Below, piece by piece: positions 1 through 47,374 of a DNA stretch of 49,139 nucleotides. The stretch's first letter is position 1, and every line of letters starts with the position of its first letter. Source of the DNA: Cyanophora paradoxa CCMP329 (lineage: Eukaryota; Plantae; Glaucophyta). The notes beneath the pieces were generated by a model that saw only the letters and a list, made by a program, of their open reading frames with translations, searched no databases and had not been told where the DNA came from. Both the position numbers and the translations under genes were made by a program. The DNA lies in assembly GCA_004431415.1 (NCBI GenBank), contig QPMI01000140.1:1-49139 (forward strand), read 5' to 3'.

Positions 1-482
1 AGGCCCTCAACGAGCTCTTCGTGGCGGGGCGCCACTACAAAATCATGACCCTTATCACGACGCAGTATGCCAAGGGCATCAATCCCGTCCTGCGCTCCAA
101 TACTGATCTGGCTGTCATTTCAAGTGCTCGCAGGCGACGCGAGCAGCGCGAGCCTCTCGCAAAGGGAGTGGGGCGCGACATCATCTCCCAGCGCGCCTTC
201 TACTACCTGCTCGATAAGTACACGCAGGATAACCACTGCCTTATCATCGATTCTTCCAACAACTCTACGACCCTCTGGACGTTTTGTACGTCTACAAGGC
301 CGAGGAGCCGCCCCCCTTCCGCATCGGATCCAAGGAGTACTGGGAGGGCGAAAACCGTCAACGGAGAAAATCTCGTGGGTCCGGACGACGGCACGGTGGA
401 CAAGACGCTCCTCGGCATGATAGATAATTTCCAGGAAGCACCGCGGCTTCGCGCTGATTATTTTCTGAGGCTTCGTGCGTAA
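1..482 (+). CDS. A32-like (FtsK-HerA family) virion DNA-packaging ATPase, C-terminal part, frameshifted
   Basis: ALNELFVAGRHYKIMTLITTQYAKGINPVLRSNTD contains the GRH, TTQY and LRxNxD motifs. An alternative frame gives VLYVYKAEEPPPFRIGSKEYW, typical of NCLDV/PLV ATPase C-termini. Confidence 0.9.
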   Translation, partial: ALNELFVAGRHYKIMTLITTQYAKGINPVLRSNTDLAVISSARRRREQREPLAKGVGRDIISQRAFYYLLDKYTQDNHCLIIDSSNNSTTLWTFCTSTRPRSRPPSASDPRSTGRAKTVNGENLVGPDDGTVDKTLLGMIDNFQEAPRLRADYFLRLRA

Positions 483-484
483 GC

Positions 485-835
485 ATGTCGCCCAGCGCCC
501 ACATCGCCTCCGTCTTCCGCGTCGAGTCCATCGCTTACGACTGCCTCCTGGAGGCGAGCCTCGACCCCTCCTCGCCCTTTAACGACGGCGAGGTCAGCAG
601 CGCCCTGGAGAGGATCTGCGACGCGCTGGGAATTAACTGGGAGCGCCTGACCGCGGAGGCGGCGGACGAGGCCGCGGCCGAGTCGCTGGGCATGAGGACA
701 CCAGCTCGGAGGAGATGACAGACGAAGAGGGAGAACAGGGTGATTTACGTGCGCGACCCGCGGACGATTTTGCGACCTCGGAATCGGCTCGGAGGAGGAG
801 GAGAGGAGACCGAGGACGAGGACTCCGACGCCTAG
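485..835 (+). CDS. Small acidic hypothetical viral protein (frameshifted)
   Basis: ORF 485-718 continues in other frames to an acidic tail ending at TAG 833-835. Preceded by the TTTTCT motif. Confidence 0.5.
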
Positions 836-870
836 GCGCGCCCCTTAAAAATTTCCGAGGCGCTAGGAAA

Positions 871-1209
871 ATGTCAAAGGTGCTCCTAGGGCTCTCCAGG
901 CTATCGTGCAGTACGCCCTCGGCCTGGCATCCGGCTCCCTCATCGACGCCGCCTTCTCCTCGCACGAAGGCGAAAACAGGGCGGGCCACGCAGCCGAGCT
1001 CGCCGCGCAAGGTCGCCGTCAACGGCCTCTCCCTCGGCCTGCTCTCGAAATACGTGCTCACCCTCAAGTTCTTCGACGACGACCCCACCGGCGGAATTAT
1101 GTTCATCCTCGGATTCACACACGGGCAGACGAACATGCTAATCAAGGCTACCAGCGCCAGCTTCGGAATCAAGCAGGCGCTCCGAGCGGAAGGCCGCCGC
1201 GATCACTAA
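871..1209 (+). CDS. Small hydrophobic/membrane viral protein (frameshifted)
   Basis: AAAATG start. Joined frames give MSKVLLGLSRL.QYALGLASGSLIDAAF...VAVNGLSLGLLSKYVLTLKFFDDDPTGGIMFILGF. Confidence 0.55.
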   Translation: MSKVLLGLSRLSCSTPSAWHPAPSSTPPSPRTKAKTGRATQPSSPRKVAVNGLSLGLLSKYVLTLKFFDDDPTGGIMFILGFTHGQTNMLIKATSASFGIKQALRAEGRRDH

Positions 1210-1216
1210 AGAGTAG

Positions 1217-2174
1217 CTAAAGAGTAGGAAAGAAATGCAGTCGTTGTACTTCGCAGATCTGTTCCAAATCGAATCTAACTCCGAGAGTTTCTGCCTGCTC
1301 TTGAGCAAGGGGAAAAAGGGAGGTGCTGGGGCAAATCCAGCAGCACGAAAATCTGCCTGAAAACGTAATTGTAGTTGAGCATGTTCTTCCTGCCCTGCGA
1401 CTTGAACATGCTGAAGGGGACCTCCACCAGGGCGAACATCTCCTGCACCCGGTCCATGTCCTCCGCGCTCATCGGAGGCGGGCGCTCGCCCGTGATGCGC
1501 CACTTGATCTGCGCCCAGCGCTCGATGTACTTCTGCTGCTTCAGAGCCCGGAGAACTTGGCGGATATTGTCTTTGCTCCACTCCTTCCCCGCCATGCGCC
1601 TCGCAATAGCTGCCAGCACGTCCTCGGGTACCGGAGAATCCTCCAGGCAGTGCTGCTTAAGTCGCTCGGAAACGTGGTACTTGCGCAGGTAGTTGCTGTG
1701 GAGCTCGCTGACAGCCAGGGGTTGATGGTCCGGATAATAAAGATCCAGGACCAGACCGCAAGCCTTGGCAAACCAGATCCCCATCCAGGTGAACACCAAC
1801 GAGGGCGGTAGAGCTGCAATTTCCGCAGGGACAGCGCTTCGCCTTGGGGGCCTTGGGTGCGGCGGTTGCGCTTGCGGGGCGCTCTCCGGCCCCGAGGTAG
1901 GAGTTGGCGATGGCGGCGGCGGCGGCGGGGTACGGTGCCGGAGTGTCGAAGTCTGGGTCCCCCTCGTCGTGAAGGATGGCGCCGTAGCGCTGGATCTGCT
2001 CGAAGTTTCGGAGGAGGAGATCGATTTCGTTAGAGTCTGCCATTCCTCTGAGTCCTCGTACTGCAGCTGAGCTATTCCCCTGCAGAACCAACAGGTTGGC
2101 TTCTCAGAGGAGAGTGGGTCCCACTTGCAAGTGAGGAAGCACTTGTTGCAGAAGGCGTTGCTCAGGTGATTCAT
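1217..2174 (-). CDS. VLTF3-like (poxvirus A2L family) late transcription factor with Zn-ribbon, frameshifted
   Basis: Zn ribbon CPCGNC...DGDLVCQ.CGLVL. Conserved segments YHVSERLKQ, RKNMLNYNYVFRQIFVLL and PFFPLLKSRQKLSELDSIW. After a frameshift the C-terminus reads QICEVQRLHFFPTL*. The start may be 2043 (MADSNE) or 2174 (extra CxxC...CxxC). Confidence 0.9.
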
Positions 2175-2272
2175 GTGAGGCTCAGTGATGCTCAGGTGAG
2201 GTGCGGACGTACCCCGGGGCCCACGTGGAAGCTCACCCCAGCCTCGGAAAATTTTCTAGGCCTTGGTCTGAC

Positions 2273-3118
2273 ATGCTCAACCTCATCGCGAGGGGCGTGG
2301 CAGCAAACAGGCAAGCCCGGGCACCGAACCCTCACCTCCGCATGGACGCCTCCGGCCGCCGCTCCGGGTAGAGACGCACATCGTGGTGGGCAACATCAAC
2401 GACAAGGTGCTGGCGCCCGACAAGACGTGGTTCCAGAAGGTGCTGGACGCGGCGCCCGTGAGGAAACTGAACGGGGAGGATCGGCCGCAGCGCGAGTCGA
2501 ATTTCATGATCACCATCCAGACCAAACTACAAGCCGCGGAGCAGGGGAGAGGGCTCCAAGGTGCAGGACGCGTTTCACAGGGGCTGGAGGCCCTCTTCTA
2601 CGACGACAGGCAGCTGGCGCGGTGCATAAAGATGGGGTGTACCCGACAAGGCGAACCCCAAGGGCTTCGATTTCAAGTCCGACCAGTACGACACGCACGT
2701 GGAGAAGGGCAACGCGAACATCGGCATCGAGTACGGGCCGCGGTCGGGGCGGCTCCACGCGCACATCCGCTCACGCTGCGTGCACGTACTCGCGCGTGCA
2801 ATTCGACGGCAAGAAGGCGTCGGATTTCCTCATCAAGTTCATGCAAACGGAGGGGCAGGCGGCCTGCCGAATTTCTACAAGGACGACTGGTTCGGGGAGG
2901 AGTACCAGAAGACGGCGGTGCGGCCGATACGGAGAAAGGACGCCCTCGGCATGCAGTGGACGGGCAAGGGACGGGCTACAGGAAGCGAGAAAACCGCCAG
3001 GCAGATGCACGTAGACGTACAAAAATTGCTGCCGCAGAGCAACCTTAAGGATCTGCTGCAGCTGTACATTACGAAGACGGTAGAGGCCCTCGAGACGGGC
3101 GCTGTAAAGCTCGTGTAA
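2273..3118 (+). CDS. HUH-superfamily (rolling-circle Rep-like) endonuclease 1, frameshifted
   Basis: Motif I-like RESNFMITIQT (~2491-2523), motif II IEYGPRSGRLHAHI (~2726-2767) and motif III LQLYITK (YxxK, ~3065), in the canonical order. Confidence 0.8.
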
Positions 3119-3139
3119 ATTTTTTCTCGTGTCCAATAA

Positions 3140-4149
3140 ATGCCTCCGAAGCGCCGAGGCCGCAAGAAGAAGCCAGAGAGCTCGAGCGAGTCAGAGGAAG
3201 AGGAGCCCACGTCCCGTCCTCCGAGTCGGAGGAAGAAGAGGAGGAAGAGGAAGAGGAGCCGGAGCCTAAAGCCGAAGGGCAAGGGCAAGGGAAGGGAAAG
3301 GGAAAGGCAAAGGGAAACGCGCCCGATACCGGCGTGGACGAGCTCGAGACGCCCGTCGTTGAGATTCCGAAGCGATACGTGCTGGTTCAGGGCGAGGACG
3401 GCATATTCCAGCAGCAGAAGAGCATATCCGATTACATCAAGCTCTCGGCCACCAAAGAAGTTCAGATGCTCCATCGCTGCTCGATAAATCATACCACGAG
3501 CCCGCGACCCTCTGGAGCATCCACAGCGAAAATCGAGTACGATAAACTCCCCGAGGAGCGACTGCGCGCCATACCGCGCACTGTACCAGAGCGCGCAGAA
3601 ATCGCCGCCAATCTGCTACCGCTGCCTTCGCCTCATGTACGAAGCCACGCCCGTGCCGAGCGCCAAGGGGGCCAACACGCCAAGAAAATCGCCGCGAGGG
3701 AGGCAGCGCAGGCGAGGAAGGATGCCGTGTACGAAGAGTACGTCGCGGTCATAGAGAAGGCAAATCGCGTGGGCGGCCAAGCAAAACGGCAAGGGAAAGA
3801 AAAAGGGCCAGGAGCCGTACCCCTCATCAAGGACAAAGAAGCCGGCGCAGGTGCCCACGGTGTCGCCCAGAAACTCGTGGCTCTGCCAGAAGTGCGTCAC
3901 GTTCTGCTCGGCAACAAGGGCCTGCTTCGTGATCTTGGGCCTGCAGAGGCGAAAGAGGGGCGACACGGCTCCACGCTCCAAGCAGACGCGCGACCAATGG
4001 TCGAGAGCGTGCTCGGCGGGCCGAAGCCAAAGACCACGAAAAAGGCAAAGGATACGGCCGCTGACTTCGGATCGTCCGTCATCGAGCCCAACTCTGCGCA
4101 GTCGAAAATCAGAAAGGCGAAAATCGTGGCGCGAGCATGGAAGATTTAA
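3140..4149 (+). CDS. Basic/acidic low-complexity protein with NLS-like start; possibly the N-terminal part of a long HUH protein
   Basis: MPPKRRGRKKK start, poly-Glu, KGKGKG repeats and a coiled coil. Overlaps the start of the HUH2 ORF at 4137 with no promoter motif between them. Confidence 0.55.
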
Positions 4150-5100
4150 TGGCAACCTTCGCGGACGCGCAAGAGGTAAAGCAGAACATAGAGAAGGCGA
4201 AAACGGGACTGCAGGCGGCGCAGGCAAACGGGCTGGAGGCGCTCGAGAAGGTGATCACGGAAATCAGCGAGACGGGGCGGTCGGTCTTCATCCTCAACAA
4301 AAAGAATCCCGACGGAAGCACGCGGTACGACATACGACAGGCGCGCCAGTCGCGCTACTGGGTGCTCTTCAACACCCACAAGCGCCTGGGAGAGGCGCGA
4401 GAATTCGAGGCGCGGCGCTGCGCGACAGCCTCGCAGAGGTGCTCTCGGATGCAGAATCTACAAGTTCATACGCTTCAATATGAAGGAAGAGAACGGCAAG
4501 TACAAGGACGACACGTACGCCAACGCAATCATCGGAATTCGCGTGCAAGGGGCGTGGAGGTGGGGCCGACGGACGCGCGCTGCACGCCCACGTGCTGGTG
4601 ACGATCGATCACATATCGAATTTGCAGGTGCTGTGGGCGAATTACGACTGGGTGGTGCTGCTGAAGGAGAAGGAGCCGAGCACCACGACGGTGTACGAGC
4701 GGCTGCACCAAATTCTGTCCGCGAAATTCACGGCGGCGGGGCAGCGCCTCGTAGACCAGAAGAGGGCAGAGGCAGGGCCTCAACCGAGCATCGATACGAT
4801 GGTGGAAATCGCAGAGCTCGAGCGCATGCTGACGAAGAGAAGATAGGCATGGGGAAAGATCCGCCCACCGTCCTTGCGTCGCTGATCCCAGAGGAAAATT
4901 ACGCGAGCAAGCTGCAGGAGTACCTCTCAAAGACGCTGCCCCGACAAGCAGAGGCGCGATTTACTGAAAGAGTGGTCGCACGCGCGAACACGAACAACAC
5001 CGACAACAACACGGACGGTACCTTCACGATTTTCCAGGCGGACGCGGCCAGGCGGACGATCCCCGCTTCGCGCCGCAGGCCGCGGAAATCGGCGACCTGA
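4137..5100 (+). CDS. HUH-superfamily endonuclease 2 (paralog of 2273-3118), frameshifted
   Basis: RQSRYWVLFNTHK (motif I-like). VEVGPTDAR/LHAHVLVTIDHISNLQV across a 1-nt shift at ~4580. SLIPEENYASKLQEYLSKT (YxxK at 4921) aligns with KLLPQSNLKDLLQLYITKT of HUH1. Confidence 0.78.
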
Positions 5101-5185
5101 GGGCCAGGGGCCGAGGGGCGCGGCAAAGGCAAGGGGCGCGGAAGGGGAAGGGGTAGCGGATAATAAATCTGACGGGCCCGCGAAA

Positions 5186-5447
5186 ATGTTCCAGGGGGAA
5201 TGCACCCACTCGGACATCATCACCGTCGTCTGCGGCGCGCTCTTCCTGGTCTCGGAGCTGCTGGGCGGCACGGAGCGCGTCGCCCCAACACAGTGCTGGC
5301 GCCCTGAAGGCGGCGGCCCTTAGGGTCGTCCGCCGCGGACAGCCCGAGCCGAACCCCACCGGAGCAGCAGAGGCGCGAGAGCACGCAGAACATAGGGCCG
5401 CACCACGTCGACATTCAGATGACGCAAACGGTACCCGTTTTTTCTAG
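5186..5447 (+). CDS. Small membrane protein (end uncertain because of frameshifts)
   Basis: AAAATG start; MFQGECTHSDIITVVCGALFLVSELLGG is a hydrophobic segment. Confidence 0.45.
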
Positions 5448-5459
5448 AGAACATGGGAA

Positions 5460-5822
5460 ATGGAGACTCCCGCGACACCAGCCCCAGCGCAGAGGCTCCA
5501 GCGCCAGCAACTCCAGCAGCAGCACCGCGGCCTACCTTGGCTTCTTAGGACTTACGCGCGAAAGAAGCAGCAGCAGCCGAAGGCACCGGCGGAAATGGCG
5601 GCTGACCTGGATCGGTGCACCCGCCGCGCCATCGCGAGCTACGCCAAGCGCGTCGAGCAGTACCACCCCAGATGGCAGAGGACGCCCGGGCGTACGCGAA
5701 GAACCCGCCGCGAGCCCGCCCGTGATGGCCGCCGTCATCGACCGGCTGCAGTGGCGCTGCACGAGGAGGGAGAGCGCGTCAGGAATTTCTTCATGCCAAG
5801 TAAATTTCTGAATGGCCCTTAA
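5460..5822 (+). CDS. Hypothetical viral protein
   Basis: ORF preceded by TTTTTTCT-N14-ATG; Gln-rich N-terminus. Confidence 0.45.
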   Translation: METPATPAPAQRLQRQQLQQQHRGLPWLLRTYARKKQQQPKAPAEMAADLDRCTRRAIASYAKRVEQYHPRWQRTPGRTRRTRREPARDGRRHRPAAVALHEEGERVRNFFMPSKFLNGP

Positions 5823-6010
5823 CAATGTCGTCCATGCTCCCGAGCTCGATGATATCACCAGCGATTCCCGCTACCTGGGCAGCCTGCTGACCCTCGGCGC
5901 GGTCGCCTACATGTCGCCCGCGCTACTACCTCGTGCGGATCCTCGCCGCGCAGTTCGCGGGCTACTACTTCGTGGGGCCCTACCTCCTCAACGGCCTGAG
6001 GAAGGCATAA
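5812..6010 (+). CDS. Small membrane protein (frameshifted)
   Basis: YLGSLLTLGAVAYMSP joined to RYYLVRILAAQFAGYYFVGPYLLNGLRKA* gives two hydrophobic segments. Confidence 0.45.
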
Positions 6011-6033
6011 TTTCTCAGGCCCCTTCCTAAATA

Positions 6034-6480
6034 ATGTCTGCGTCAACCTCTACGTCCAGTCGAACGGAGAGACGCAGGATTCCGAGGGCTTCTGGCGCCT
6101 CAGGCTGAACCAGATCCCGCCGACATCGACACGCTGCAGATCAAGGGCGTCTACCTGGAGCTGGACACGACCGCGATTCCGGACCCCACCGCCGCGAAAA
6201 ACCGTCAACGTTCTGCTGATGACGTGCCCGACTTGAACGTCACGACCATCTCGAACGTCAACACGTGCATCAACAAGGTCGTGATCCCGACGTGGGGCCA
6301 CGACGGCCTCGAGAACACCATCCTCTACTGGTTCGAGGTGCCCATGGCCGTGCGCCCGAACTACGTCGCGTACGACAAGTTCCAGGAGCTGCGCGTGCGC
6401 TTCACGACATCACGGGCGCCACCAAGAAGAACAACGCCTTCATCGTCAAGAACTTCGGCCTCTGGGCCTTTGCGAAATAG
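6034..6480 (+). CDS. Beta-rich hypothetical protein, possible minor virion protein (frameshifted)
   Basis: Joined frames: NLYVQSNGE...DTLQIKGVYLELD...KVVIPTWG...YWFEVPMAVRP...ELRVRF...FIVKNFGLWAFAK*. Alternating hydrophobic strand pattern. Confidence 0.45.
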
Positions 6481-6500
6481 ATTTTCGCAGGCCCCCTTAA

Positions 6501-6972
6501 ATGCGCCTGATCATATTCCCGCGAAAGGGCTCGGGCGTCAAGACGCGCACCTTTACGGGCGTGCCTGGCTACCCTCGCCCCTCACTTACAGAGTCGATCT
6601 TGTAACCGCTCTGGTCCAATTAAATACGGGCTGCTGCACAGCCTCAGTCACATCCGTCTCGGCGAGAGCGCATGGCAGGACTTGGCCTTAATCGTAGAAT
6701 TCGAGTACAGGGGGGTAGACACGCTAACGGGCGAGCACGTTTACAGGGTACGGGTAGCAAGGGAGGGTACTCGCTGCCGAACGGCACGGGCGGGGAATAC
6801 TGGGAGCCGAAAATACGCGACGCCTCCGAGGCTACCGCTGGCTGCGTGACGAGCAGATCACTATCAGGCCCGATTACCCCTACGCGACGTTTTCTGGCAG
6901 GTGCCCGTGGGCCGTTGGACAACGGGCGAGGTGAGCGGCAAGCTGAAGTGGACGTGGGACGCGGAGCATTAG
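6501..6972 (+). CDS. Hypothetical viral protein (heavily frameshifted)
   Basis: TTTTCG-N13-ATG (TAAATG) start. Fragments include LALIVEFEYRGVDTLTGEHVYRV and VSGKLKWTWDAEH*. Confidence 0.35.
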
Positions 6973-6997
6973 TTAATTTTTCTCTCTCGCGGATAAA

Positions 6998-9900
6998 ATG
7001 TCGATGCTCGACGACCCCTGGCGCATGGCCATCCCGAATCCGGACGAGGTGCTGAACGGCGCCTTCGCGATAGACGGGAGCCTGAGCGTGAGGGGAATTT
7101 ACGCGGACGAGATAAGGCTGCGCAAGGGCGCGACCTACAGCGATTTCCTGACGTCCGTCGGTACCTTGGACGATTACGGTGACCTCACCGCAATTATCAA
7201 GGGGCTCTGGGGCGTCACGACCGAGACGGGCGTGGACTGGAACATTATTAAGAGGGCGGCCGACGTGAAAATCGCAAACTCCGTTACAGCGAAAGACGCC
7301 ACCCTGAACCTCGTGAAACTGACTCTAAAGGGCGCAGAGGGGGACGTGAGGCCCGGGTACAACGCACTCGAGCGCATCGCGGGCCCCTGCGCCACATCTA
7401 CTGGAGCCGCCAGGCGCTGCCGAGCATGGAGCCCGAGCAGTACAGGCGCGACAGGGAGGAGTTTTCGCGTGGTTCGACCACTTCAAGGTGAACATCCGCG
7501 CCTGAGCGCCGACAGGACGGGCGAGACGCCGGAGACGACGGGCGGGGGCCGCATCCCAACGGCACCCGACGTGCTCCCGATCGCTCAGACTGGGCGAAGA
7601 CGCAGAACTGGGCGCTGAAGGACCACTTCCACGACGAGAGGTACGCCCTCGTCAAGCACCCGCATGTGAAGGCCGACATCACGGACTGGGCGCACCGCCA
7701 CCTGTACGACGACATCATCGGCGGGCCCAAGGTGCCGGCGCGATTCCGGGTGGGGTACGGGCGGCGGAAGCACGGGAGGTGGGGGTACAGGCACCGGGGT
7801 GGGGTACAGGCACCGGGGTGGGGTACAGGCACGGGGGGCGGAGGGGCTCCAGTGGCACGCCCGTGGGGGGGGGCGGGGTAGCAGCGGCTCGGGTGGCGGC
7901 GGCTCGGGCGGAGAGAGCGGCGGAGGGGGTACGCTCGTGCCGATCCTTGGTACAACAACGGGAATCTTCGGCGCGGCCCTGATTGCAGGCGGTGCAAAGT
8001 ACTACAGGGATCGGAAGGCGTACGAAAGGGACATTGCAGAGCTGCAGAAAGATAACAAAACGATCGTTTACTCAGACGAGCAGGTGAGAATACTGGCAGA
8101 GGAGCTGAAGACAAGGGAGCGGCAATTTAACGAAATGAGGACAGCGGCCGAGAAAAAGATAGCGGACGATTTGAAAGAGGCGAGCGATAGAATTGAGAAA
8201 TCCCTGGAGGCCGAGGAGAAAGCCGAGATCCGGAAGAGAGAGGCGATAGGATCGTGGAAAACGCGATAAGGGAGGCAAAGGAGCAGGCAAGGACCGAGCT
8301 GGAGAAACTGGACATGGAAATAGCAAACAAGGTCAACATAGCAAACGAGGTCGAAGAGGCACAAAGATGCTGGACGATGAGCGAAAGGCAGCGGAGGAGC
8401 AAGCCAGAAAAGCAAAGGAGGATTTAAGGCAGCTCGAACTGCGAGAACAGGAGAGGCAGAAGGCAGAGGGGCTCGCATCCACCATACGATTCAACCTAGA
8501 GCAGCAAGTGAAAACGCTGACGGCCGAGCTGCAGAGGATAGGGACGGCTGTGCCAAGGGGCACAATGGAGACGCAGACGACGCCAAGGCCCGATCCAAGG
8601 CCGGCCGCCGAGAGGCTGCCCTTCGCGCGGCTGGGTAGGAGCGACCAGGTGGAAGAGCTCATTGGCCTCACGCTCGAGGATCAGAGGGCCCTCTTCGACG
8701 CGTTAGAGCAGCGGCGCAGGGCGGACGAGGAGGCAGCTGCCAAGACAGAAGAGGAACGACTGAAGGCAATGCAAACTGCATCAGACGAGGAATTTGCACG
8801 GCTGGAGGAGCCGAAGGTAGCGGAGCGTAAGCGACGACTGGAGACGTTCAGGGGGCGCAGATGGATTTTTACCGCTCGGAGCTCAAAAGACTGAAAGAAG
8901 GAAATGCATCGGGGACAGGTCCGCGCCATGGAAGAGAACATGCGCGACTTTAGCTACGTTATGGATCAGCTGACGGGAAGGGGTCAGAAAGACGCCGAAG
9001 AACTGAGGAGAAAGATGGCCGATGAGAAGTGGAAAAACTTTGAGCGTCAGGCTGTTCAGAGGCCCATCAGCGATGCCATCTGGATAGCATACGGCGACGT
9101 GGAGGAGATGCACAGAGAACTGCGGACGGAAGCGAGCCTGTGGCGGGGAGCCCTCGAATGGTCACTGTACCGGATACAAAAGGGGAGTTTTTGGCAGAGC
9201 TGCGAGCCAATCCGAAAACGGTGAGCGCGGGCGCACAGAGCGCGTACCTCTCCATGGTCGATTACGTGGGCAAGCTGAGCAAATTTTGGGAAATGCGAAG
9301 AGCCATCATTCCAGCGGAGGGGCTCGCGCAGTACGATGCCATGGTGCGCGATCTGGAGGCCTTCAAACGTGAGCACCCACCCGCCAAATACAAGATTCAC
9401 ATAGATACGACGGCATTCATGGGCGATCTAAGGAAGAGAGGAGACGAGGCCAAGAGTCAGATCGAGGAGCGCTACAGAAAGGCCCAAGCGGACAAGGAGT
9501 ACGCAAACAGGGTGATCGAAGAGCGGAAGCAGCAAGCCAAGGAGAACGCGGCGAGACGCAACGCCGAGATAGAAGAGCAGAGGCGGAAGATCGCAGAGCG
9601 CAAGGCGGCAGAGGAAGAGGCAAGAAAGACCAAGGTAGAGACAGAGTACCAAGCATTGAAACGGGAGGCCAATCAACTGTTAAAAAGGAGGGGAAGGGCC
9701 TACGCCGACGAGGGCGCGGGCGTGGGCTCGGCCAGCCCGGACGACATCACCTCGCGGAAAGGGACGACGTTTCCGTAGAGGAAATGCGCCCGGGCACGGC
9801 TCGCCTGCCCTCCGAGGGCGTATTTCAGACGCTCGACAGGCGCGTGATGGGCGACTCGGACGTTATTCTGCGCAACGCCCTCATGCCCTACGGCGACTGG

Positions 9901-12078: not shown

Positions 12079-12102
12079 TCGATTTTCTGATGCAATCCAA
12101 AA

Positions 12103-13161
12103 ATGTCGGTCGCTGTCCCTCTATTTACCTATGCTGCCAGCGTGAATCACAAGGGCGATCACACGATTAAGGAGACCACCCTCGGAAACCAGGCCACCGA
12201 GGCCCCCTACAACGCCACGGCCGTCCCCTTTTCCGAGGCCGACCTCGTCCGCGTCGGCGAGCTGCGCTGCGACAAGATGCGCACGCGGGAGGGCGGGTCG
12301 GCCGTGCCGGGGCGCGTGAGGACGCAGAGGCTCACCGTCACGAACGGGGCCTGGGACGGGAGCGGGTACACCACGAATCAGGTGACCTTTAATGGGACTG
12401 TGAACGGGGAGGGAATGCGGCTCTGTATGTGCAAGGAGGCGGAGCAAACGTGGTGGGGGGCTTAGGGTGAGCGGGGCTTCAAACTTGGCGGGCATCGTTA
12501 CATTGGACGATAAGCTGCAAATTACCGGAACGTCACCGTACATAAATGGCGGTGGTTCAGGCGTAGCTATAAAGTACAACGAAAACGATAGACTCCTCTG
12601 TGGGACTCTTGGCGTTGGTGTTACAGGTACTCTATTTACCTCGGCAATCGAAGGCCCTACTAATGGCCTAAGCATAGCAAACACTTCAATCGTTGATAGC
12701 GGAAGCGTCAGCTCTGGTCTATCCTTGAGAAACAACGGCACCGAACGACTGCTGTGCGGAACCGTCGGCGTTGGCATCACGGGTCGGCTCATCGTCTCGA
12801 CGCTCACGGGCGATGGAAACCGAGCCGTTTATTCGGATGCTCAAGGATACCTGACAAACTCGTCGAGCGATAGCCGCCTGAAAGAAAATGTCGCGAGCAT
12901 GTCGGGCATTCTCCCTCTTCTGCTGCAGCTGAATCCCGTGTCGTTCACCTGGAAGAACACATCCTCGGGGGGTTCGAAAACGGATTACGGTCTCATCGCA
13001 CAGGAAGTCCAAGGCGTCTTCCGAGTCTCGTTTTCGAGAACGCGGATGGATTTCTCGGGGTAAACTACGACAGGCTCATTTCCCTGTCGTTGAAGGCAAT
13101 TCAGGAACTTTCACAAGAAGTTCAAACTCTCAAAGACCAGGTAGCGGCACTGGCGAGCTGA
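12103..13161 (+). CDS. Fiber protein with C-terminal Peptidase_S74 intramolecular chaperone domain (frameshifted)
   Basis: SSDSRLKENV...LNPVSFTWK...YGLIAQEVQ, then GVNYDRLISLSLKAIQELSQEVQTLK coiled coil. Internal repeat RLLCGTxGVGxTGxL occurs twice. Confidence 0.88.
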
Positions 13162-13181
13162 TCTGGAACAACTAGGAATAA

Positions 13182-15316
13182 CTACACCGCGAGTATCACA
13201 ATTCGACCGTTGCCACCGTCGCTGAAAGACGAGCCACCGTTGCCGCCCCTACCAATGCCTGCTGCGTAGTGAGCGTCTCCGCTATTTCCTGCCACCTGGC
13301 CGGACCCAGGATACACCGTAGCATCCGTCAAGTTTCCTATGTAGCTCGAGCCACCGCCACCTCCAAACATTCTTGCTATTGGGTTCTCTGACACTCCGCT
13401 CCTGCTGGACCCAGAGCCTCCACCGAAGTAACCACCACCACCACCACCACCGAACCTGTAGCCGCTTGAATCAGGCCCAGTCTCTCCACCTTGGCGCAAA
13501 GTTCCCGGGTTGCTGGGCCTGGCCCCTGAGGCCACAACACCGGCTCCGCCAGCGGTTTGGGTGCCTCCTTGAGCCGGTATCTCTCCGGTTACTCCAACCA
13601 ACCCAGCCGCACCACCGGTCAACCCCCGCCTACTCCCCCGCCGCCATTCGAATCACATGTACCCCCACCTCCGGCCCCTGCAACAACCAAGTCGGTCCCT
13701 GCAACGCGCTGAATTGCAGAACGACCACCACCGGCGCCGTTTTTGTACTCCGGATCGACGCTATGGCTCCAGCCCCTTCCACCACCTCCGTAGACGGTAG
13801 CAGTGGCAGTCCCCGATACACCCTTTGGGCCGCCGCATCCAACAACAAGGATGAGCGTCTCCCCCGAGGACACAGCCAATGTACCAACTACGCAAGCACC
13901 CGCGCCTCCACGGACCCCCGTACCTGCGCGTTCTCCGCCTCCACCCCCGGCCGCCCATACGATGACACGCACAGCCACAGTCCCCGTTGGTACTACGAAA
14001 GTCTGGTCGGCCCGGTGTAGGAGAATGTACCCAAAACAGGAGCGTTTGCAGTTGTTGCACTGGCAGACGAGGACTGAGGGCCTTCCTCGCCGATCTGGTT
14101 GACGCCCTTGATGGTGTAAGTGTAAGTGGTTCCGTAAACGGTCGTTGTGTCCGAAAAGGGCTGCTCGTGTCGCTGGCAAGGAACACGCCACCCCTGTAGA
14201 TGTTGTAGGAGACGGTGACGCCCGTCACCGGCACCGACCACTCGAGCACAACAGGCTGTGCTGCCCCGCCGCGGGGGTTGCAGTGAGCCCAGTGGGCGCC
14301 CCGGGTCCGTGGTGACGTACGCCGCAATACTCTTCGGCCCCTCCCCTCCGTGTTCGTCGCGGAGATCTGGTACTCGTACCCTGTACCCCAGACGGTGGTC
14401 GTGTCGCTGTAGGAGTTGGTCGCGGAGTCTGTGAGGTAGGCCCCGTCTCTGTAAATCTTGTATCCCGTCGCTCCCGTGGACGCAGTCCAGCTGAGGCTGA
14501 CAGGCTGCTGCTGGTCGTTGGGTGCTGATGCCGTCACGTTCGTGGGGGCGTTTGGCATAGTCCAGACCAGGAGCGGATCGGACTTGTCGTATTCGACACC
14601 GCCCACGATGCCGGCCACCTGGTAAGAGTATTCCGTGCCCCACGTAAGAGCAGTGCTATCGTCAATGTACGAGGTAGACAGGGCACTGCTCGCAAATCCG
14701 ATTGGCGTACCGTTCCTGTAAATTCGAATCGAGTCCGCGCCCTCCATGGCCACCCAGTTGATTGTGACGACTATGGCGGGTTTCGGGAAGCCCGAAGACG
14801 CGGGGCCGCCCCGGCAATAAAATCGCCGTAGGTCTGGGCCGTGGCGGTCGTGAGCGTGGTGTAGGCTTCGATCTGCGGGCTGAAGCCGCCTATGCCTTGG
14901 AAGAGAATGTAATTGCTCATGGCACCCTCGTGGGTGTAGAGAAGCGACTGTGCGTAGGTTGTGGGCGGGGCTTTGCCATCAGAGCCCGTGCTGCTGCTGC
15001 CCTGTTCGCGAACCGCCGCCACGCGGTAGAGTCGCTGGGCCCCCAAACTAAAGGGAGAGTCCGTGTAGGTGACGGTTGGCGCATTCACCGTGGCCACGAG
15101 ATCCCAGGGGCCGTTGATGCTGGTCGCCCTGTACACCTTGTACTTGACGGCGTTGGTGACCGCGACCCAGTTCAGCTGAAAGCCGTACGTACTGTTCCCG
15201 TTGTTGAGCACGGAGCCCGATCGCACCTGGGGCCTGCCCACAGTCAGCGAGATCGGCTCCACGCCATACTGCGGAGCCTGCACCACCTGCTTTTTCACGA
15301 ATACGAAGCGGGGCAT
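13182..15316 (-). CDS. FN3-repeat protein with C-terminal glycine-rich (ALK/LTK-like) domain; putative receptor-binding fiber (frameshifted)
   Basis: About four FN3-like units (LNWVAVTNAVKYKVYR, LSWTASTGATGYKIYRDG...YEYQISATN, LEWSVP...SYNIYRGG). Then [41 protein letters not shown] and GGNGRIVI. Confidence 0.85.
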
Positions 15317-15355
15317 TTTCCTCTACGATCCGAAAAAATATCTGCCCCGGGGTAA
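15317..15355. promoter_or_regulatory. Compact bidirectional viral promoter
   Basis: 39 bp between divergent ATGs. The minus strand reads TTTTTTCG-N14-ATG and the plus strand AATATCT-N12-ATG (TAAATG); both match the element-wide motif. Confidence 0.55.
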
Positions 15356-15994
15356 ATGACTTCCAACTGGTACCAGACCCTCAGCGGCTCACTTGACGTT
15401 GGCAACAACACCAAGGATTTCGCACGCCTACGTGATTCAGGTCGTTCAGAACGCCTACGCCACGCCCAAGATTTATTCCTACCAGCTCTTCTTCGACCCT
15501 CTGAGCCTCAGCGCAGAGGTTATCGAGCTGCTGCACGAATCAGGACTCGTGAAAAAGGTGGCACCTGCCACGGCCACTGCCAACGTCTTGCGCTGTCTCG
15601 AGGTCAAGTTCAGGGAGACGGGGTACGGCCCCACCGTGAACCGGTACCCCAGTTCTTCGAATCTTCCGGGTACGGGAACTTACCAGATGAGGGGTACGCT
15701 CAAGGGCGACGTGCTCTTCACGAAATTCAATCCAAGTCCCGCGACCCTGGGGCCCTCTACACGGGCGGCAACCCACGCGGCTCGACTCTACCCCGCTTCC
15801 CCTTCACCTTTTTCAGGTTCCAGGTCTTCCCCCTCTCCTACGCCGCCGACCAGCCCCACTTCAGCACGGGCGCCAGCCTCTGCGCGGAGCTGCGTGAGTG
15901 CTCGATTTCCTACGCGTACGGCACCGACGCTGACTCTGTGCCTGGGGCCCGCGTCATGAACATCGGTGGCGACATCACCCTCTTTCACGGATAA
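15356..15994 (+). CDS. Beta-rich hypothetical virion protein A (paralog of 16018-16829), frameshifted
   Basis: Shares blocks with the next gene: FFDPLSLSAEVIELLHESGLVKKVAP, RCLEVKF, NPRGSTLPRFPFTFFRF, GASLCAELRE. Confidence 0.6.
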   Translation: MTSNWYQTLSGSLDVGNNTKDFARLRDSGRSERLRHAQDLFLPALLRPSEPQRRGYRAAARIRTREKGGTCHGHCQRLALSRGQVQGDGVRPHREPVPQFFESSGYGNLPDEGYAQGRRALHEIQSKSRDPGALYTGGNPRGSTLPRFPFTFFRFQVFPLSYAADQPHFSTGASLCAELRECSISYAYGTDADSVPGARVMNIGGDITLFHG

Positions 15995-16017
15995 TCTTTC
16001 TCATTTGAGGTCGCAAA

Positions 16018-16829
16018 ATGCCGACCACCTCGGCCACCATCGTGAAGACCGTGTCTGCCGGCTCGATCGTCCCGATTTCTACGGCAACGCTGGGAACGTG
16101 GCCAACGCAGGGACGGACAAGGTGGAGTGGGACGGAAACTACGCCACCCCGCTCACCGTGAGGGTCCAGAATCCCGTCATGTTGCGCGTCACCTCCAACG
16201 ATTTCGAGAATCCCGCCTCCTGCTCCGTGTACGTGTACTTTGACATCGACTCGGGCGTGAGCGCGGATGAGGCGGAGGCGCTCTGGCTCTCGGGCCTCCT
16301 GAAAAAGATAGAGCCCTCTGTGCCTGATCGGCCCGCCATTCGCGTGCTCGAACTCAAGTTCACCGCTAACACCGCCCTCACTCGCAAATTCGGGAATGGT
16401 GCGAATCCGAACATCAAAACGCATTTAGATGGCGCCCTCATCGATGCCACACACAAGACCACGCAGGCCGTTCCCTTTGAGATGTACAACCTCTGGAAGA
16501 TGACCGCAAAGGAGATGATGACGAATGCCACCACGGGCGGCGCCTCGGGTACCGATTATTCATACGGCGCCTCGAATCCCCGTACCCAGGTCTGGCCCCG
16601 GCTCCTCTTCACGAAATTCACTTTCAAATTGTACAACAACATCGCCGGAATGCCTACCTCTGGAATGGTCGTGGGCTCTACCCTCATGGCCGAACTAATT
16701 GAGGCAGAGGCGGACTACACGACTGCGACTACCAACTCGACAGCGCCAGGCGCCGGAGCCGAAGTTTACGTGGCCTGGGAAACGGTCGGTCGCGAGTACG
16801 ACACCAAGATTCACACCACTAGCGTCTAG
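16018..16829 (+). CDS. Beta-rich hypothetical virion protein B
   Basis: AAAATG at 16018 (MPTTSATIVK, then a frameshift). YFDIDSGVSADEAEALWLSGLLKKIEP, RVLELKF, NPRTQVWPRLLFTKFTF, GSTLMAELIE. Confidence 0.65.
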
Positions 16830-17182
16830 ACTGGCTAAGCTGCATTAGCACCTGTGTCGCCTCCATCATCTCCCGAATCTCCTCGCTCTTCTCCTGTAAA
16901 TTGGCGTACCCCCTCCTCTTCTTGCGAATCTCCGACATTGATGCCCAGCGCAGGTTCTCCCTCCTGTAGTCCAGCGGGTTGCCGTTGATGTGTTCCACGT
17001 AGCGTCCACGTGGCGACTTCCCGAGGATCAGCTGGAGAGGTAGTGCTTGCGCCCTCCAAACGTCTTGCTCACCCTGTCCCTGTCCACTCTCCAGGGAAAC
17101 TCCAAGGCACTCGGGGTACGTCCGAGTTGACCAGGACGTTGTAGGCGACGTCTTGCGAGTCGGTGCACCGGAGCAGGGCCAT
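16819..17182 (-). CDS. HNH_3-type (I-HmuI-like) homing endonuclease domain protein, probably catalytically degenerate; not in the ORF track
   Basis: TTTTCT motif upstream of an AAAATG at 17182. Manual translation: MALLRCTDSQDVAYNVLVNSD...FPWRVDRDRVSKTFGGRKHYL.QLILGKSPRGRYVEHINGNPLDYRRENLRWASMSEIRKKRR...QSRR*. Confidence 0.75.
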
Positions 17183-17206
17183 TTTGCCCTAGGTTCAGAA
17201 AAACCT

Positions 17207-17285
17207 GGGACTTGGGACTTGGGACTTGGGACTTGGGACTTGGGACTTGGGACTTGGGACTTGGACTTGGGACTTGGGACTTGGG
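17207..17285 (+). repeat. (GGGACTT)n heptamer array, copy 1 (11 units, one with GG)
   Basis: Read directly; bounded by CCT on the left and GGGAAGAGTT on the right. Confidence 0.97.
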
Positions 17286-17436
17286 AAGAGTTGAAACCCA
17301 GGTCCCGGCCCAGACTTTCTCCAGGATCAGAAATTTGTCAGACAAGTCAGGTGAGTTTTTCTACCGACTTTTTTACTCCTACCACTCCTCATACTCTTTT
17401 TTACTCGTAGTCTTTTTTACTCGTAGTCTTTTTTAC

Positions 17437-17628
17437 TCGTATCCCATCTCGTACCCTCCTTCTCTCGACATCTCACACGAAAACTCCTACCCCTCTTCAC
17501 ATCCGTTTTCGGTTGCATACTCTCGTGAGCTTTCATGTCCAGTATCATGCTACAAGTCGTACACCAGTTCAGACTCTACCTCGCTTGAAATCTCACCTGG
17601 AATGTCACCAGAAACGTCATATGCAGAT
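17437..17628 (+). repeat. Degenerate 12-bp-period array: 16 units of TC+N10
   Basis: TC at 17437, 17449, 17461 ... 17617 without exception. Preceded by 16-bp CTTTTTTACTCGTAGT repeats. Confidence 0.85.
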
Positions 17629-17728
17629 TTCCGTACCCCTCTACATGTCTGCCCGGTGGTTAGGGACTTGGCGCGGCAAACTCTCAGATCCAGAGAGATT
17701 CTGGGCCCAGACCCTGAGTCTAACTCTT

Positions 17729-17780
17729 CCCAAGTCCCAAGTCCCAAGTCCCAAGTCCCAAGTCCCAAGTCCCAAGTCCC
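17729..17780 (-). repeat. (GGGACTT)n heptamer array, copy 2 (7 units), inverted relative to copy 1
   Basis: CCCAAGT x7 on the + strand, with the same AACTCTT/CCCAGG boundaries as copy 1. Confidence 0.97.
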
Positions 17781-17854
17781 AGGATCGCGCCAAGTCGTAA
17801 CTGAATAGTCGGCCAATTTTTACAAGTATGTACAATGGAATGACGCAATACTAT

Positions 17855-18916
17855 TTACAGCATCTCAAAGTCAGAGTCATCGTCATCGGAAACCAACTCA
17901 ATGAGGCCCTCGGGCGCCGACTTAAGGGGAATGCGGGGAAGGGACTGCGCTGCCTGCACCAAGTCCTGCCGCTCGCGCTCGCGCTGCGCCGCCAAGGCCG
18001 CTGCCGCCTCTGCCTCGCGCTGCTGCTGAGCCTCGATGCGCGCCTTGAGCTCGGCCGCCTCCTTCTGCTTGCGCTCGGCGATCCGCGCCTTGTTGATCTG
18101 GTACTGGACAAGGCGCTCGTGGCGCCGCTTGCGCTCCAACTCCTTGCGGAGCTCGTTGCAGAGGACGCGCTTCTCAATGGTCTTGACGTGCTGAGTCAGG
18201 CGCTCGCTGTAGTGTGACGTCACGCGAGAACGGGCAATGCCGGCGCCGAGCTTCAAGTCCTTCTCGTGTGCCTTGGCGGGGTCCTTGACGCGCTCGGAGT
18301 TGTCGGTGAATGACGTAGTCTCCATGAACTTCTTCTTGACGATTGACTTGGTCTTGATAATGCGGCGCTTGCGAGTCGGGTTTTCGTTGTCGCCTTCAGA
18401 GTCAGAAGACGACTCAGAGTCGTATGGAATCGGCACGTCAAAGTCGATGAAGTCGTTGATGTCAGACTCGACGTCAGAGGCCTCGGACTTGGCGTCATCG
18501 GCGGGCTCGGGGCGGGCTCGGCGACGGGCTGAGGGGCAGATGACGACGATGACGGAGGGGGTAATTCGTGAAGACTTGAGGGGGTAGGCCCAGGCGAGCG
18601 TCTCGGCAGCAGACTCGGCGAAAAGCTTGGGGTCGCCCCAGCCGTTGGCGGTCTTGACCCAGCCGGGACGGGGGCACGTCGACGGGGGCTCGGGCTTGGG
18701 TTGCTTGGACTTGGATTTCTTGGCCTTGGACGTGAAGGCGGACTTGGGAGAAGTTGCACTTCGGGGCCAGTGGCGCGTAAGATGCATAATTGTAGATGTA
18801 CCCCAGAGCGTCGGCGCGCTGCTCCATCTCAGGGTAGCCCCTTGAGTGCCACCGGAGTTAGCCCACGTTGCTTGGACAAAGGCGAAGTCCTCGGCAAGCT
18901 CAGCGGGAATCGACAT
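17855..18916 (-). CDS. Hypothetical nuclear protein: acidic tract, NLS-like RKRR, coiled coil, C-terminal SIM-like motif
   Basis: ATG at 18916 (MSIPAELAEDF) immediately after a splice-acceptor-like tract. Ends LIELVSDDDDSDFEML*. Confidence 0.65.
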   Translation of the reverse strand: MSIPAELAEDFAFVQATWANSGGTQGATLRWSSAPTLWGTSTIMHLTRHWPRSATSPKSAFTSKAKKSKSKQPKPEPPSTCPRPGWVKTANGWGDPKLFAESAAETLAWAYPLKSSRITPSVIVVICPSARRRARPEPADDAKSEASDVESDINDFIDFDVPIPYDSESSSDSEGDNENPTRKRRIIKTKSIVKKKFMETTSFTDNSERVKDPAKAHEKDLKLGAGIARSRVTSHYSERLTQHVKTIEKRVLCNELRKELERKRRHERLVQYQINKARIAERKQKEAAELKARIEAQQQREAEAAAALAAQRERERQDLVQAAQSLPRIPLKSAPEGLIELVSDDDDSDFEML

Positions 18917-19255
18917 CTGCGCAAAGGGAAAAGAAATCAGCAAAGGCAAAACGTGAGGTGACTGTGAGGGCGGACTTGTGAAAATTCGGAGAGGCGGGGT
19001 TTCCTTGGGCTGAGAGAAGGCGGCGAACCCGTTTCAAGAGTGAGCCAAAATGGCGGCGGACCGCGGTTTTGTGGGCGATTTTTTTCGCGGTCTAGTTCGC
19101 AACGGAAAACGTTGCCAACTGGCCTGAAAAAAGCCAAATTTAGCGTTGGACCGAAGGCAGAAAAAGGGAGCCGGCCTGACGGAAATCGCCCGAGTGCGTC
19201 CGCCGAAGGTCGAGTCTCGGATGGGGGGTACACCCTCAGGGGCCCCCCTGGCCCC

Positions 19256-19726
19256 TCACCCTGGTAGTGCCCTCTCAAAGGGATTTTCGAAGCCGTACAA
19301 TTCTTGGTAAGTCTCGTAATCCGGGCTGTACCCCCTCACAATCTGCGGGAGCCCCATTGAAAGCCTCCGTCTATCCTCTCTCAATTCCCTGCGGAAAAGT
19401 CTACGGTCTTCTCGAGCTTCGCGTGTCACGCCAGCTGGGCGTGGTCTATGATTGTTAGGGTTGTCGTAGCCTGGTCCCACCAGCCTCACGAAATTTTCGC
19501 GTATGGCCTCGGGGAGGCTCTGGAAACGGCTCGTCGCGTGGAACTCAATCCATTCATTGAATCGACGCGGATATTGACGGATGACTTCAAGCACGCCCTG
19601 TGTGTTGGGCTCTGGTGTTACGTCGGGGATGTCATGTCCCGTGAGGTGCCAACGCCAGAACTCGCGCAACCTCTCGAATGCCATATTCAACTCAAAGGGA
19701 AAATCGTAATAGAGATTGCCTGACAT
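19256..19726 (-). CDS. Hypothetical viral protein, 156 aa
   Basis: Intact ORF MSGNLYYDFPFELNMAFERLREFW..., preceded by TTTTCG-N13-ATG. Confidence 0.65.
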   Translation of the reverse strand: MSGNLYYDFPFELNMAFERLREFWRWHLTGHDIPDVTPEPNTQGVLEVIRQYPRRFNEWIEFHATSRFQSLPEAIRENFVRLVGPGYDNPNNHRPRPAGVTREAREDRRLFRRELREDRRRLSMGLPQIVRGYSPDYETYQELYGFENPFERALPG

Positions 19727-19784
19727 TTTTCTCCCCGTCCGAAAATTTCCCCGCTTTTGGGTCCAGACTCTGATTCCAACTCTT

Positions 19785-19843
19785 CCCAAGTCCCAAGTCC
19801 CAAGTCCCAAGTCCCAAGTCCCAAGTCCCAAGTCCCAAGTCCC
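19785..19843 (-). repeat. (GGGACTT)n heptamer array, copy 3 (8 units)
   Basis: CCCAAGT x8 with the same flank (GGGTCCAGACTCTGATTCCAACTCTT) and CCCAGG end. Confidence 0.97.
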
Positions 19844-21280
19844 AGGTCACATTTTTCTCCCATTTTGACTCGAGATTCTGACCAAGTCCAAATCCGGGCC
19901 CGGGATTCGAACCCTCGTTTTCGATCGATTTCACGCGTGAAAACGGCACTTTTCGGCCTTTTCCGATTTTTCCTTTCTCGCGATCGCATTAATGTCCCCG
20001 ATCTCGAAATCGCGATCGAAAAGGGTCGCGATCGGGAGAAAATCGCGATCGCCAGGGTCGTGATCGCCGCGATCGCCAGCCTCGGAGGGGGTACCCCCAC
20101 AGCTGTTGCGGCGGTTATAAGAACCTCCGCAATCCAAGCGTCACTTCCGAGTCTCGAGCTCTCGGAGTTGACTTTTCGCGTTTGGCCCATTGATGGCCCT
20201 CCTATATAGATACATATGTACGATTTCGACGTCTCGAACTCATCGGTCGCGTTTGTTTACGAAGTCTAGGTTTAATGTCATATATCGCCATTGCAGCGCA
20301 CCGGGTTGTCAAGAGAGCATATCGGATACAGTCCGCGTATCCACAAGAAGTCTCATGTTCCCTTGGAACTTCTACGAATGCTGCGCGACATCGGTTTCGA
20401 TCAGAAGAAGGATTCCAGAAAGTCCGGAGTCCGGAATAGTACTCGCTCGCCCTCAGTTGATTTAACCGATTGAATATATATATGCCGTGCAACATCTAAA
20501 GTGTCGACGTCCCCGATCGCGAGTGCGGCACGGAACGCACGGGCGCCGCAGCTGGATCCAACGCGGTGGAGGAGGACGAAGGTTGTGCCGGTGGGGCTCA
20601 GAGAGGGCGCAGCGGCGAGCGCGGACAGCACGCGAGAGTGGTGGCCCGAGCCCGCGCTCTCGTAATCCTCCTCCGCATCGCTGGCGTCCAGGTCCGAGGG
20701 CGAGGGCGAAGGGGGGCAGGACACCAGATCGGCCATCGAGCGGGGGCTGCAAGAGCCAGCGCTGCGTGTGCTTGGGTCCGTGGCCGCAACACGGCTGGCC
20801 ATGGCGCTGGCTATATTTGTTGGCTGGCCCGCGCAATCCGCGGTTGCCTGGGGCGCGGGCCCGGGGCGCTGGCGACTGCGGCGAGAACTTAAGCTGCACA
20901 TCATATCCGCCGCGTTCTCCATGCGAAGATCTAGCAAGACCAGTACGTATCTGTGCGGGCCGCCAATTGCAAGGAATACTTCAAGGCTTGCGCCCGGCTG
21001 CAGATCTAGACAGCAGCGCTCAGCGGCTAGATATCGATCGCCTTCTCTCCGTAGCCGCCGCGCGCGTGCGAATCCAGTGTCGAATCCAGCTGCAGCTGCA
21101 GGTCGATCGATCTCGCTTGAAGAGTCGCTTCCGCCCGCCGGGCCGGCGGCCGGCGTACGTATATCATAGTATATACGTATACGTACAGCAGCAGTCCGCC
21201 GGGCTGCGGCGACTCGGAGCCTCGGAGCAGCGGCTCAGCGAAGCCGCGATCGATATCCCGCGGCCGGGAGTCCGCACGAG

Positions 21281-21750: not shown

Positions 21751-22064
21751 CGCACGAGCTGCACATGCGGCTGTTGATGCTCCTCGCCAAGGGGTACAAT
21801 GCTTGGGCGGCGATGGAAGCTTGCCATTGGCAGCTGGACGGAGGGGTCACAAATCGTGATATATGCCAATATATGCACACCGTGAACTATGAATCTGTGA
21901 TAGGAGAGCATGTGCATGCCAATGATGCTGGCGGCCATGTGCATGCCAATGATGCCATTGCAATTGCGCCGAAAAACAAAACTTCGGAACTCCACTGGCC
22001 ACTAGAAATCTAGAACGGTGAAAACCGTGGTACTGTACAGTCTGTACTATAGCGCGAGCCTATA

Positions 22065-47343: not shown

Positions 47344-47374
<31 letters not shown>

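Follow-up and report, generated by a model that had tools for sequence, protein, structure and literature searches.

The 49,139-nucleotide stretch of Cyanophora paradoxa CCMP329 analyzed here (contig QPMI01000140.1; hereafter the window) begins with a viral element related to the Mriyaviricetes, which occupies positions 1 to ~20,210, its left part lying beyond the window edge. We found that this element belongs to an amplified, many-copy family with a fixed, hairpin-rich end and is not a single insertion, because its terminus is over-deep in short reads, its flanks are varied, and the family is represented by 18 VLTF3 and 25 long-HUH gene models; that the family is endogenous and mriyavirus-like is very probable. 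Mriyaviruses have been proposed as the closest living relatives of the giant-virus ancestor, and they are found in algal genomes without integration genes. Because one sequenced organism carries tens of copies that share a defined end and two conserved HUH proteins, the insertion route is directly testable.

Endogenous mriyaviruses are already known. Passages of earlier reports describe them as integrated in Phaeocystis (PMC12480563) and chlorophytes (bioRxiv 2026.06.19.733378), and as Mriyaviricetes regions in a Glaucocystophyceae assembly (bioRxiv 2025.04.19.649669), the last of which may concern this very family; the preliminary description, which held such viruses to be known mostly from metagenomes, was therefore overstated, as integrated members were already published in three eukaryote groups. 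Methylated endogenous giant-virus genes are likewise mentioned for C. paradoxa (PMC12344493). The Phaeocystis elements of yaravirus-like or nucleocytoplasmic large DNA virus (NCLDV)-like dwarf virus (NDDV) type (PMC12480563; bioRxiv 2022.07.28.501842) and the Glaucocystophyceae regions are, like the element described here, mriyaviruses embedded in chromosomes, and short tandem repeats are said to border Phaglo-G (bioRxiv 2022.07.28.501842), but the passages on the Phaeocystis and glaucophyte elements name no terminus, target, or insertion enzyme. In the literature found on endogenous mriyaviruses, neither a fixed terminus shared by many copies nor HUH-driven insertion is described, although preprint supplements and figures may map the ends of this family.

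Junction, terminus, and copies

Fourteen of the 24 short-read runs listed, all under one organism label, contained 75-80% of the words of 14.5-24 kb, and because the flank makes up only 40% of that stretch, the viral part is present in the same runs as the flank. When contigs from four of the 14 were compared with 19860-22380, each run yielded one junction contig (20183-21308/10) with 0 differences at a depth of 62-117, confirming the earlier proposal of an endogenous element with a real junction. The boundary, previously put at ~20.2 kb, could be refined to ~20207-20212, where other contigs exit into other flanks. At this end the depth drops from thousands to ~100, the excess in the 20200 bin amounting to 8-11 bases. 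The terminal contigs, which cover the last 350 bases, reached 50-63x the flank depth, with one variant class at 31-34x in all four runs, and the steadiness of the ratio fits fixed integrated copies. Loose ends followed 20210 (at least 4 contigs, X1) and 20212 (at least 4 contigs each, X1 and X6); they had a median of 255 nt, and the low agreement among the ends listed (0.49-0.59) indicates that the flanks differ. No empty site was seen at the junction in the contigs of the four runs, which drop rare variants. In a folding comparison of the terminal 353 nt, the actual sequence surpassed all 100 of 100 shuffled versions (z -3.4).

The preliminary description had raised the matter of other copies, and these proved to be numerous. 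EukProt holds 5 VLTF3 clusters with 18 members and 10 long-HUH clusters with 25 members, and the names of these copies point to 14 different contigs. Since P0002 and P0129 probably represent the present locus, the siblings number 17 for VLTF3 and 24 for the long HUH. For the long HUH (611-724 aa) and VLTF3, intact orthologues are also found in other sources (P0140, P0141, P0144, P0003, P0006), suggesting from their sequences that the lineage exists beyond this host.

Several points weigh against an amplified endogenous family. The four runs are possibly of one strain and may include the source sample, and the loose ends counted are those among the ends listed, beside which 251 further rows exist. 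Depth is not copy number, and the depth figures cover the terminus and the flank, not the viral body. The junction contig carries 28-30 letters on the viral side, against a bridging rule of 31, a length expected where a graph of 31-letter words branches. This shortfall of 1-3 letters, together with the indel-filled viral part, would suit a chimeric assembly of free virus and host DNA. Such a chimera is nonetheless largely refuted, and we give it hardly any credence, as the exact junction contig stands at flank depth in four of four runs, other junctions share the same end, and the gene copies lie on 14 named eukaryote contigs.

Viral genes and their relatives

The first 20.2 kb is gene-dense, with ~51-67% GC and scarce TA dinucleotides, and the remainder of the window holds many repeats and AT-rich spacers. 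Pfam was scanned with all 177 stop-to-stop frames of at least 70 aa starting before 20,500 and with 112 of the 241 later frames. On the viral side, the matches above cut-off were VLTF3 (1278-2255, minus strand, E 1.4e-14), Peptidase_S74 (E 1e-12), fn3/RGI_lyase, a glycine-rich domain, and HNH_3, and the fibre-type genes (Peptidase_S74, fn3, and the glycine-rich domain) also matched phage tail-fibre families. The ATPase fragment had no Pfam match but showed 57% identity over 83 aa to the ATPase of a metagenome contig (L001) and matched a profile of related ATPases (E 9e-27). Pfam, profiles, and motifs together bear out the compact cluster of packaging ATPase, VLTF3, two HUH endonucleases, and fibre genes noticed at the outset (Table 1).

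For comparison, 75 related loci were fetched by similarity, namely L001 and loci from IMG/VR, all of them partial contigs. The first 74 contained ATPase (73), VLTF3 (71), an NCLDV-type major capsid protein (MCP; 35), and HUH (7), and the intact VLTF3 relatives have an N-terminal zinc ribbon. In one 36.9-kb contig (L014 and L015), the order is MCP, RuvC, YqaJ-type nuclease, ATPase, a 114-aa gene, VLTF3, HUH, and a 1,755-aa HUH_long. We call these relatives gamadvirus-like because this order matches the gamadvirus gene list in Table 1 of PMC11253617. Their profiles match the ATPase, the small gene (E 1e-4 and 5e-3), VLTF3, and both HUH regions of the window. The 38 cluster profiles from the relatives, including RuvC and PDDEXK, found no MCP, RuvC, PDDEXK, or ssb in the window; the relatives have ssb, PDDEXK, MCP, and RuvC to the left of their ATPase. 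HUH_long aside, the ten Gamadviridae-specific proteins (mCP, ssb, and others) gave weak or no profile matches. No useful closer relatives with genomic context emerged from the viral contigs (VLTF3) or prokaryote genomes scanned, a search of viral contigs with the long-HUH alignment returned 1 gamadvirus-like locus, and a phage collection gave one weak mollivirus VLTF3 and no ATPase.

The element resembles the Gamadviridae, as described in PMC11253617, in its A32 ATPase, in a VLTF3 that faces the ATPase across a small conserved gene, and in a short HUH followed by HUH_long with motifs intact; no polymerase is seen in the visible part. Gamadviridae (Pleurochrysis endemic viruses and NCLDV-like dwarf viruses, within the Mriyaviricetes) differ in having a HUH_long of 1,590-1,760 aa, whereas that of the element has ~610-720 aa and forms its own clade; in addition, the HUH pair adjoins VLTF3 here but lies ~10 kb away in gamadviruses, and the element has phage-like fibre genes and an HNH nuclease. 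Of the traits of the Mriyaviricetes, the window shows the A32-type ATPase, VLTF3, and a HUH endonuclease with motifs I-III; others are an NCLDV-type double jelly-roll MCP, RuvC, a PDDEXK nuclease, a helicase, VLTF2, the lack of DNA and RNA polymerases, and a genome of 35-45 kb, and at least 20.2 kb of the present genome lies in the window. Identity between the VLTF3 and the fetched gamadvirus-like set is 31-41%, compared with a median of 51% among the members of that set, and the VLTF3 forms a long branch outside 56 gamadvirus-like rows (midpoint root, no outgroup). Similarly, identities between the ATPase fragment and 66 relatives lie at 36-57%, whereas those relatives share at least 60% mutually over the same 83 columns. 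From the long VLTF3 branch and the ATPase identities it follows that, on these sequences, the element represents a separate lineage close to the sampled gamadviruses but not within them, and it falls outside the compact gamadvirus clade in both the VLTF3 and the long-HUH trees. Counting against this placement, the ATPase and VLTF3 comparisons included no yaravirus, polinton-like virus (PLV), Polinton, or giant-virus outgroup. The first assignment, mriyavirus- or yaravirus-like, thus stands for the mriyavirus part and is refined to the gamadvirus side by the tandem HUH pair and the order of ATPase, small gene, and VLTF3, in a comparison that had no yaravirus sequences. The family adds a lineage outside the sampled gamadviruses and is relevant to the role of their second HUH, which is unexplained.

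A gamadvirus-like HUH profile matches both HUH regions (E 4e-9 and 1e-3), neither of which has a Pfam match. Motifs II and III lie at 2753 and 3065 in the first region and at 4580 and 4921 in the second, and motifs I-III can be aligned with those of gamadvirus-like HUH and HUH_long, down to the tyrosine and lysine of motif III. The second HUH domain forms the C-terminal part of a ~676-aa protein (3140-5160), and the order of short and long HUH is that of HUH and HUH_long in L015-L017. The family comprises two subfamilies whose long HUH is 67% identical, with 88-94% identity in the HUH domain compared with 48-64% in the N-terminal body. A full library search with the long HUH returned 28 proteins, including three full-length orthologues at 30-32% identity. 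In a tree of 36 rows (of 42 matches, 6 that were short or duplicated were removed), these orthologues grouped with the family in a clade apart from gamadvirus HUH and HUH_long, with support of 84/93 and long-branch warnings.

Frameshifts interrupt almost every viral gene in the sequence as assembled. Compared with the nearest sibling, single-base shifts outnumber substitutions; in the alignment of 3140-5160 with P0130 (676 aa, 12 members), 648 residues are identical and 14 differ, and there are 19 single-base shifts but 0 stops. There were 0 stop codons relative to P0130, P0003, P0134, and P0141, and sibling gene models break at differing places. These sequence comparisons suggest uncorrected long-read assembly errors in a repeat, which would fit better than decay, the less likely cause; the terminal 350 bp, which have no single-base indel relative to the contigs, do not help the assembly-error reading.

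A side observation concerns some of the gamadvirus-like contigs (L058, L060, L005, L011-L013), several of which have frameshifted ATPases and which may represent copies integrated in the genome of another eukaryote. In L058 (1-135 and 1357-2700), the beginning consists of a long TA run and 1.2 kb matching only L060 among the rows listed.

Candidate routes of insertion

None of the 177 viral-side frames matched an integrase, recombinase, or DNA or RNA polymerase in Pfam, in line with the preliminary description, which had seen no integrase or DNA polymerase; the frames are fragmented and cover the visible 20 kb only, and the negative for integrase is soft because the ATPase and both HUH genes likewise escaped Pfam. 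Of the pPolB and the RVE integrase or tyrosine recombinase that characterize Polintons and PLVs, the visible part shows none. No integrase family was present either among 124 cluster representatives from the 74 related loci (partial contigs; ORFs, or open reading frames, of at least 150 aa), and passages of one preprint report mriyaviruses without integration genes (bioRxiv 2026.06.19.733378). We propose, at slightly less than even chance, that the element inserts by HUH nicking and strand transfer at its fixed end, in a Helitron-like manner and not through an integrase. The virus would replicate in the nucleus by host polymerase, initiated by HUH nicking near the 7-bp arrays or the terminal hairpins; late genes would be transcribed with VLTF3, the ATPase would fill particles, and the fibre proteins would mediate attachment. 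One HUH protein, probably the long one, would then join the 5'-TC end to AT-rich host DNA. That a rolling-circle HUH enzyme has turned integrase, making the element a Helitron with a capsid and the duplicated long HUH its insertion enzyme, is held a little more tentatively still. If true, it would explain the endogenization of integrase-less mriyaviruses and link HUH transposons to Nucleocytoviricota.

The terminus offers a lead in this direction. On the minus strand at 20210, a host A is followed by TC and then by an AT-rich run, which would be the Helitron pattern, as Helitrons are described as starting with 5'-TC and usually inserting after A (PMC11417382). Passages on Helitrons (HLE1) and Replitrons (PMC11417382, PMC10288648) describe a HUH enzyme, terminal hairpins, and many copies as found here, with the 5'-TC after A seen in this copy, but Helitrons have a Rep-helicase fusion, whereas the HUH proteins of the element have no helicase domain and are accompanied by genes for packaging, late transcription, and fibres. 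Helitrons (HLE1) also insert between A and T and have a 3' hairpin with CTRR; the corresponding end of the element lies outside the window. All three 7-bp arrays have the same flanking motif, and the third lies 360 bp from the end. By analogy with the pMV158 origin, which is described as having 7-bp and 11-bp repeats (PMC10288648), the arrays are possible Rep-binding sites, and 17203-17783 is a candidate replication origin. No comparable short tandem arrays were found inside the 75 related loci, save a TA run and one 5-bp array.

HUH-driven insertion has observations against it as well. The TC dinucleotide is common, at least 4 junction contigs have no preceding A, and the end is placed only to 20207-20212. 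The predicted structure of the long HUH has a pLDDT of 49 overall and mostly 60-88 in the HUH core, and its fold search is consistent with HUH but not specific: ferredoxin-like matches included ISHp608 TnpA (Z 6.7, root-mean-square deviation [rmsd] 3.6, 106 aligned) and SIRV1 ORF119 (Z 6.2, rmsd 2.9, 92 aligned), with ACT domains (Z 7.6) ranking above the HUH entries. Foldseek gave no match to the long HUH in the PDB at E 0.001 or better, and the weaker rows listed the ISDra2 and ISHp608 transposases and the TraI relaxase among unrelated proteins; the best viral-structure match (E 7e-9) is an entry without a name, and a PDB sequence search with the HUH profile returned unrelated matches only. 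Moreover, a frameshifted integrase could be overlooked, and beyond the window the left end may have terminal inverted repeats, a target duplication, or an integrase gene.

The same virus family could instead be inserted by an integrase or tyrosine recombinase encoded in that left part, with the HUH proteins serving replication only. The precise end suits a recombinase, the 8-bp palindrome in which the junction sits could be a crossover core, and the terminus depth of 50-63x is about twice the 25 long-HUH models, as inverted repeats at both ends would produce. Passages of bioRxiv 2026.06.19.733378 describe small NCLDV-related viruses (Zoravirus VC102, VC218, VC134, and Zephyrvirus), some with HUH (Zora, VC218) or VLTF3 (some Zephyr), and Zora, VC218, and VC134 mostly carry an integrase (RVE) or a tyrosine recombinase (YR), some together with HUH; these are set apart by description, a tandem HUH pair with VLTF3 not being described in those passages. 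We regard a recombinase as unlikely, if the foremost of the alternatives, as none appears in the visible 20 kb or among the 124 representatives, the relatives' DNA left of the ATPase is ssb, PDDEXK, MCP, and RuvC, and integration genes are reported absent from mriyaviruses in the same passages.

Repair by the host could also have captured, whole and many times at AT-rich breaks, a linear genome with hairpin or inverted-repeat ends, which would give one end in many flanks without a viral insertion enzyme. Such elements have been interpreted in print as probably accidental insertions (bioRxiv 2025.04.19.649669), some mriyavirus maps have inverted terminal repeats (PMC11253617), and the two subfamilies suggest repeated entry. 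Tens of copies in one genome and an end apparently sharp to a few bases make such capture rather improbable in our view. Repair usually trims ends, which counts against it too. More doubtful still, at about one chance in ten, is that the terminal 350 bp are the 5' end of a separate host Helitron-like repeat beside the virus or its carrier. The Helitron-like start and the repeat-rich flank would agree with this, as would depth figures that do not cover the viral body, but the segment directly follows a 7-bp array motif found three times inside the viral part, the upstream loose ends at 19871 and 19917 (among those listed) lead back into that motif, and the segment has no second copy in 29 kb of flank.

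Other features of the window

Table 1. Features of the viral element and the host flank, with positions in the window (a point in the strand column marks features without strand)
Feature	Positions	Strand	Evidence
A32-type packaging ATPase, C-terminal third, frameshifted; crosses left window edge	1..424	+	relatives' ATPase, profile
Small ORF without family match	485..715	+	reading frames, Pfam
Small conserved gene between ATPase and VLTF3, as in gamadvirus-like contigs	871..1209	+	profiles, L014 map
VLTF3 late transcription factor	1215..2043	-	Pfam, relatives
Short HUH endonuclease, motifs I, II, III, frameshifted	2272..3115	+	motifs, profiles
Long HUH protein, ~676 aa in sibling P0130, HUH domain C-terminal	3140..5160	+	sibling alignment, motifs, fold
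Several small genes	5186..6970	+	frames; no profile match
Long fragmented region, charged and glycine-rich	6998..11300	+	weak matches only
Fibre-type genes: weak H-type lectin domain, then protein with C-terminal Peptidase_S74 chaperone	11324..13160	+	
Fibronectin type III repeats and glycine-rich domain	13170..15316	-	Pfam, phage families
Two genes without assigned family	15356..16829	+	
HNH endonuclease	16822..17182	-	Pfam HNH_3 E 4e-7, PHROGs
Two 7-bp tandem arrays, inverted, around pyrimidine-rich spacer with 16-bp repeats	17203..17783	.	
353-aa ORF with acidic, basic, and coiled-coil-like stretches; no family	17855..18916	-	
156-aa ORF, last gene before terminus; no family	19256..19726	-	
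Third 7-bp array copy with flanking motif	19755..19848	.	
High-depth, hairpin-rich terminal segment; six 10-nt palindromic repeats (19978-20076)	19860..20210	-	
Inverted-repeat element, 8-bp target duplication, high depth	21281..21750	.	
Inverted-repeat element, 8-bp target duplication	23154..26353	.	
Spliced RecG helicase gene; exons match successive parts of RecG model	38058..43509	+	
Third inverted-repeat element, 8-bp target duplication	43831-44334		

The flank had been called eukaryotic and rich in transposons. The spliced RecG gene and three inverted-repeat elements with 8-bp target duplications uphold its eukaryotic nature, but none of the flank frames scanned (112 of 241) encoded a transposase. 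We take the first of these elements to be hAT-like. The 3.2-kb element contains a 40-bp GC-rich array and a 161-bp array (23438-24254, 24989-25615). RecG is duplicated, at 28.2-31 kb (28245-31000) and 37.6-41.4 kb (within 37624-43509), with 86-92% identity; the first copy looks truncated, and the best-scoring models are long RecG models of 795-826 aa. Two further gene-like host regions, at 33500-34900 (minus strand) and 45200-47900 (plus strand), have no Pfam match.

Within the viral part, 6034-6480 resembles a minor capsid protein by eye only and has no profile match, and 9044-9775 gave one weak coiled-coil-like match to the relatives' profiles. The product of 13170-15316 is a probable surface protein. 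A single-sequence structure prediction of 15960-16826 reached a pLDDT of 29.5, and an Rfam search of 17790-19750 gave no match. Directly before the ATG of the 353-aa ORF lies a pyrimidine tract with CAG (18916-18960, minus strand) that resembles a spliceosomal acceptor, so this viral ORF may have a 5' intron. Many viral gene starts between 485 and 19726 have an A-rich context and a T-rich motif ~15-25 nt upstream, possibly a late promoter. This AT-rich motif, defined post hoc and descriptive only, lay upstream of 13 of 18 hand-picked gene starts compared with 22 of 339 other ATGs.

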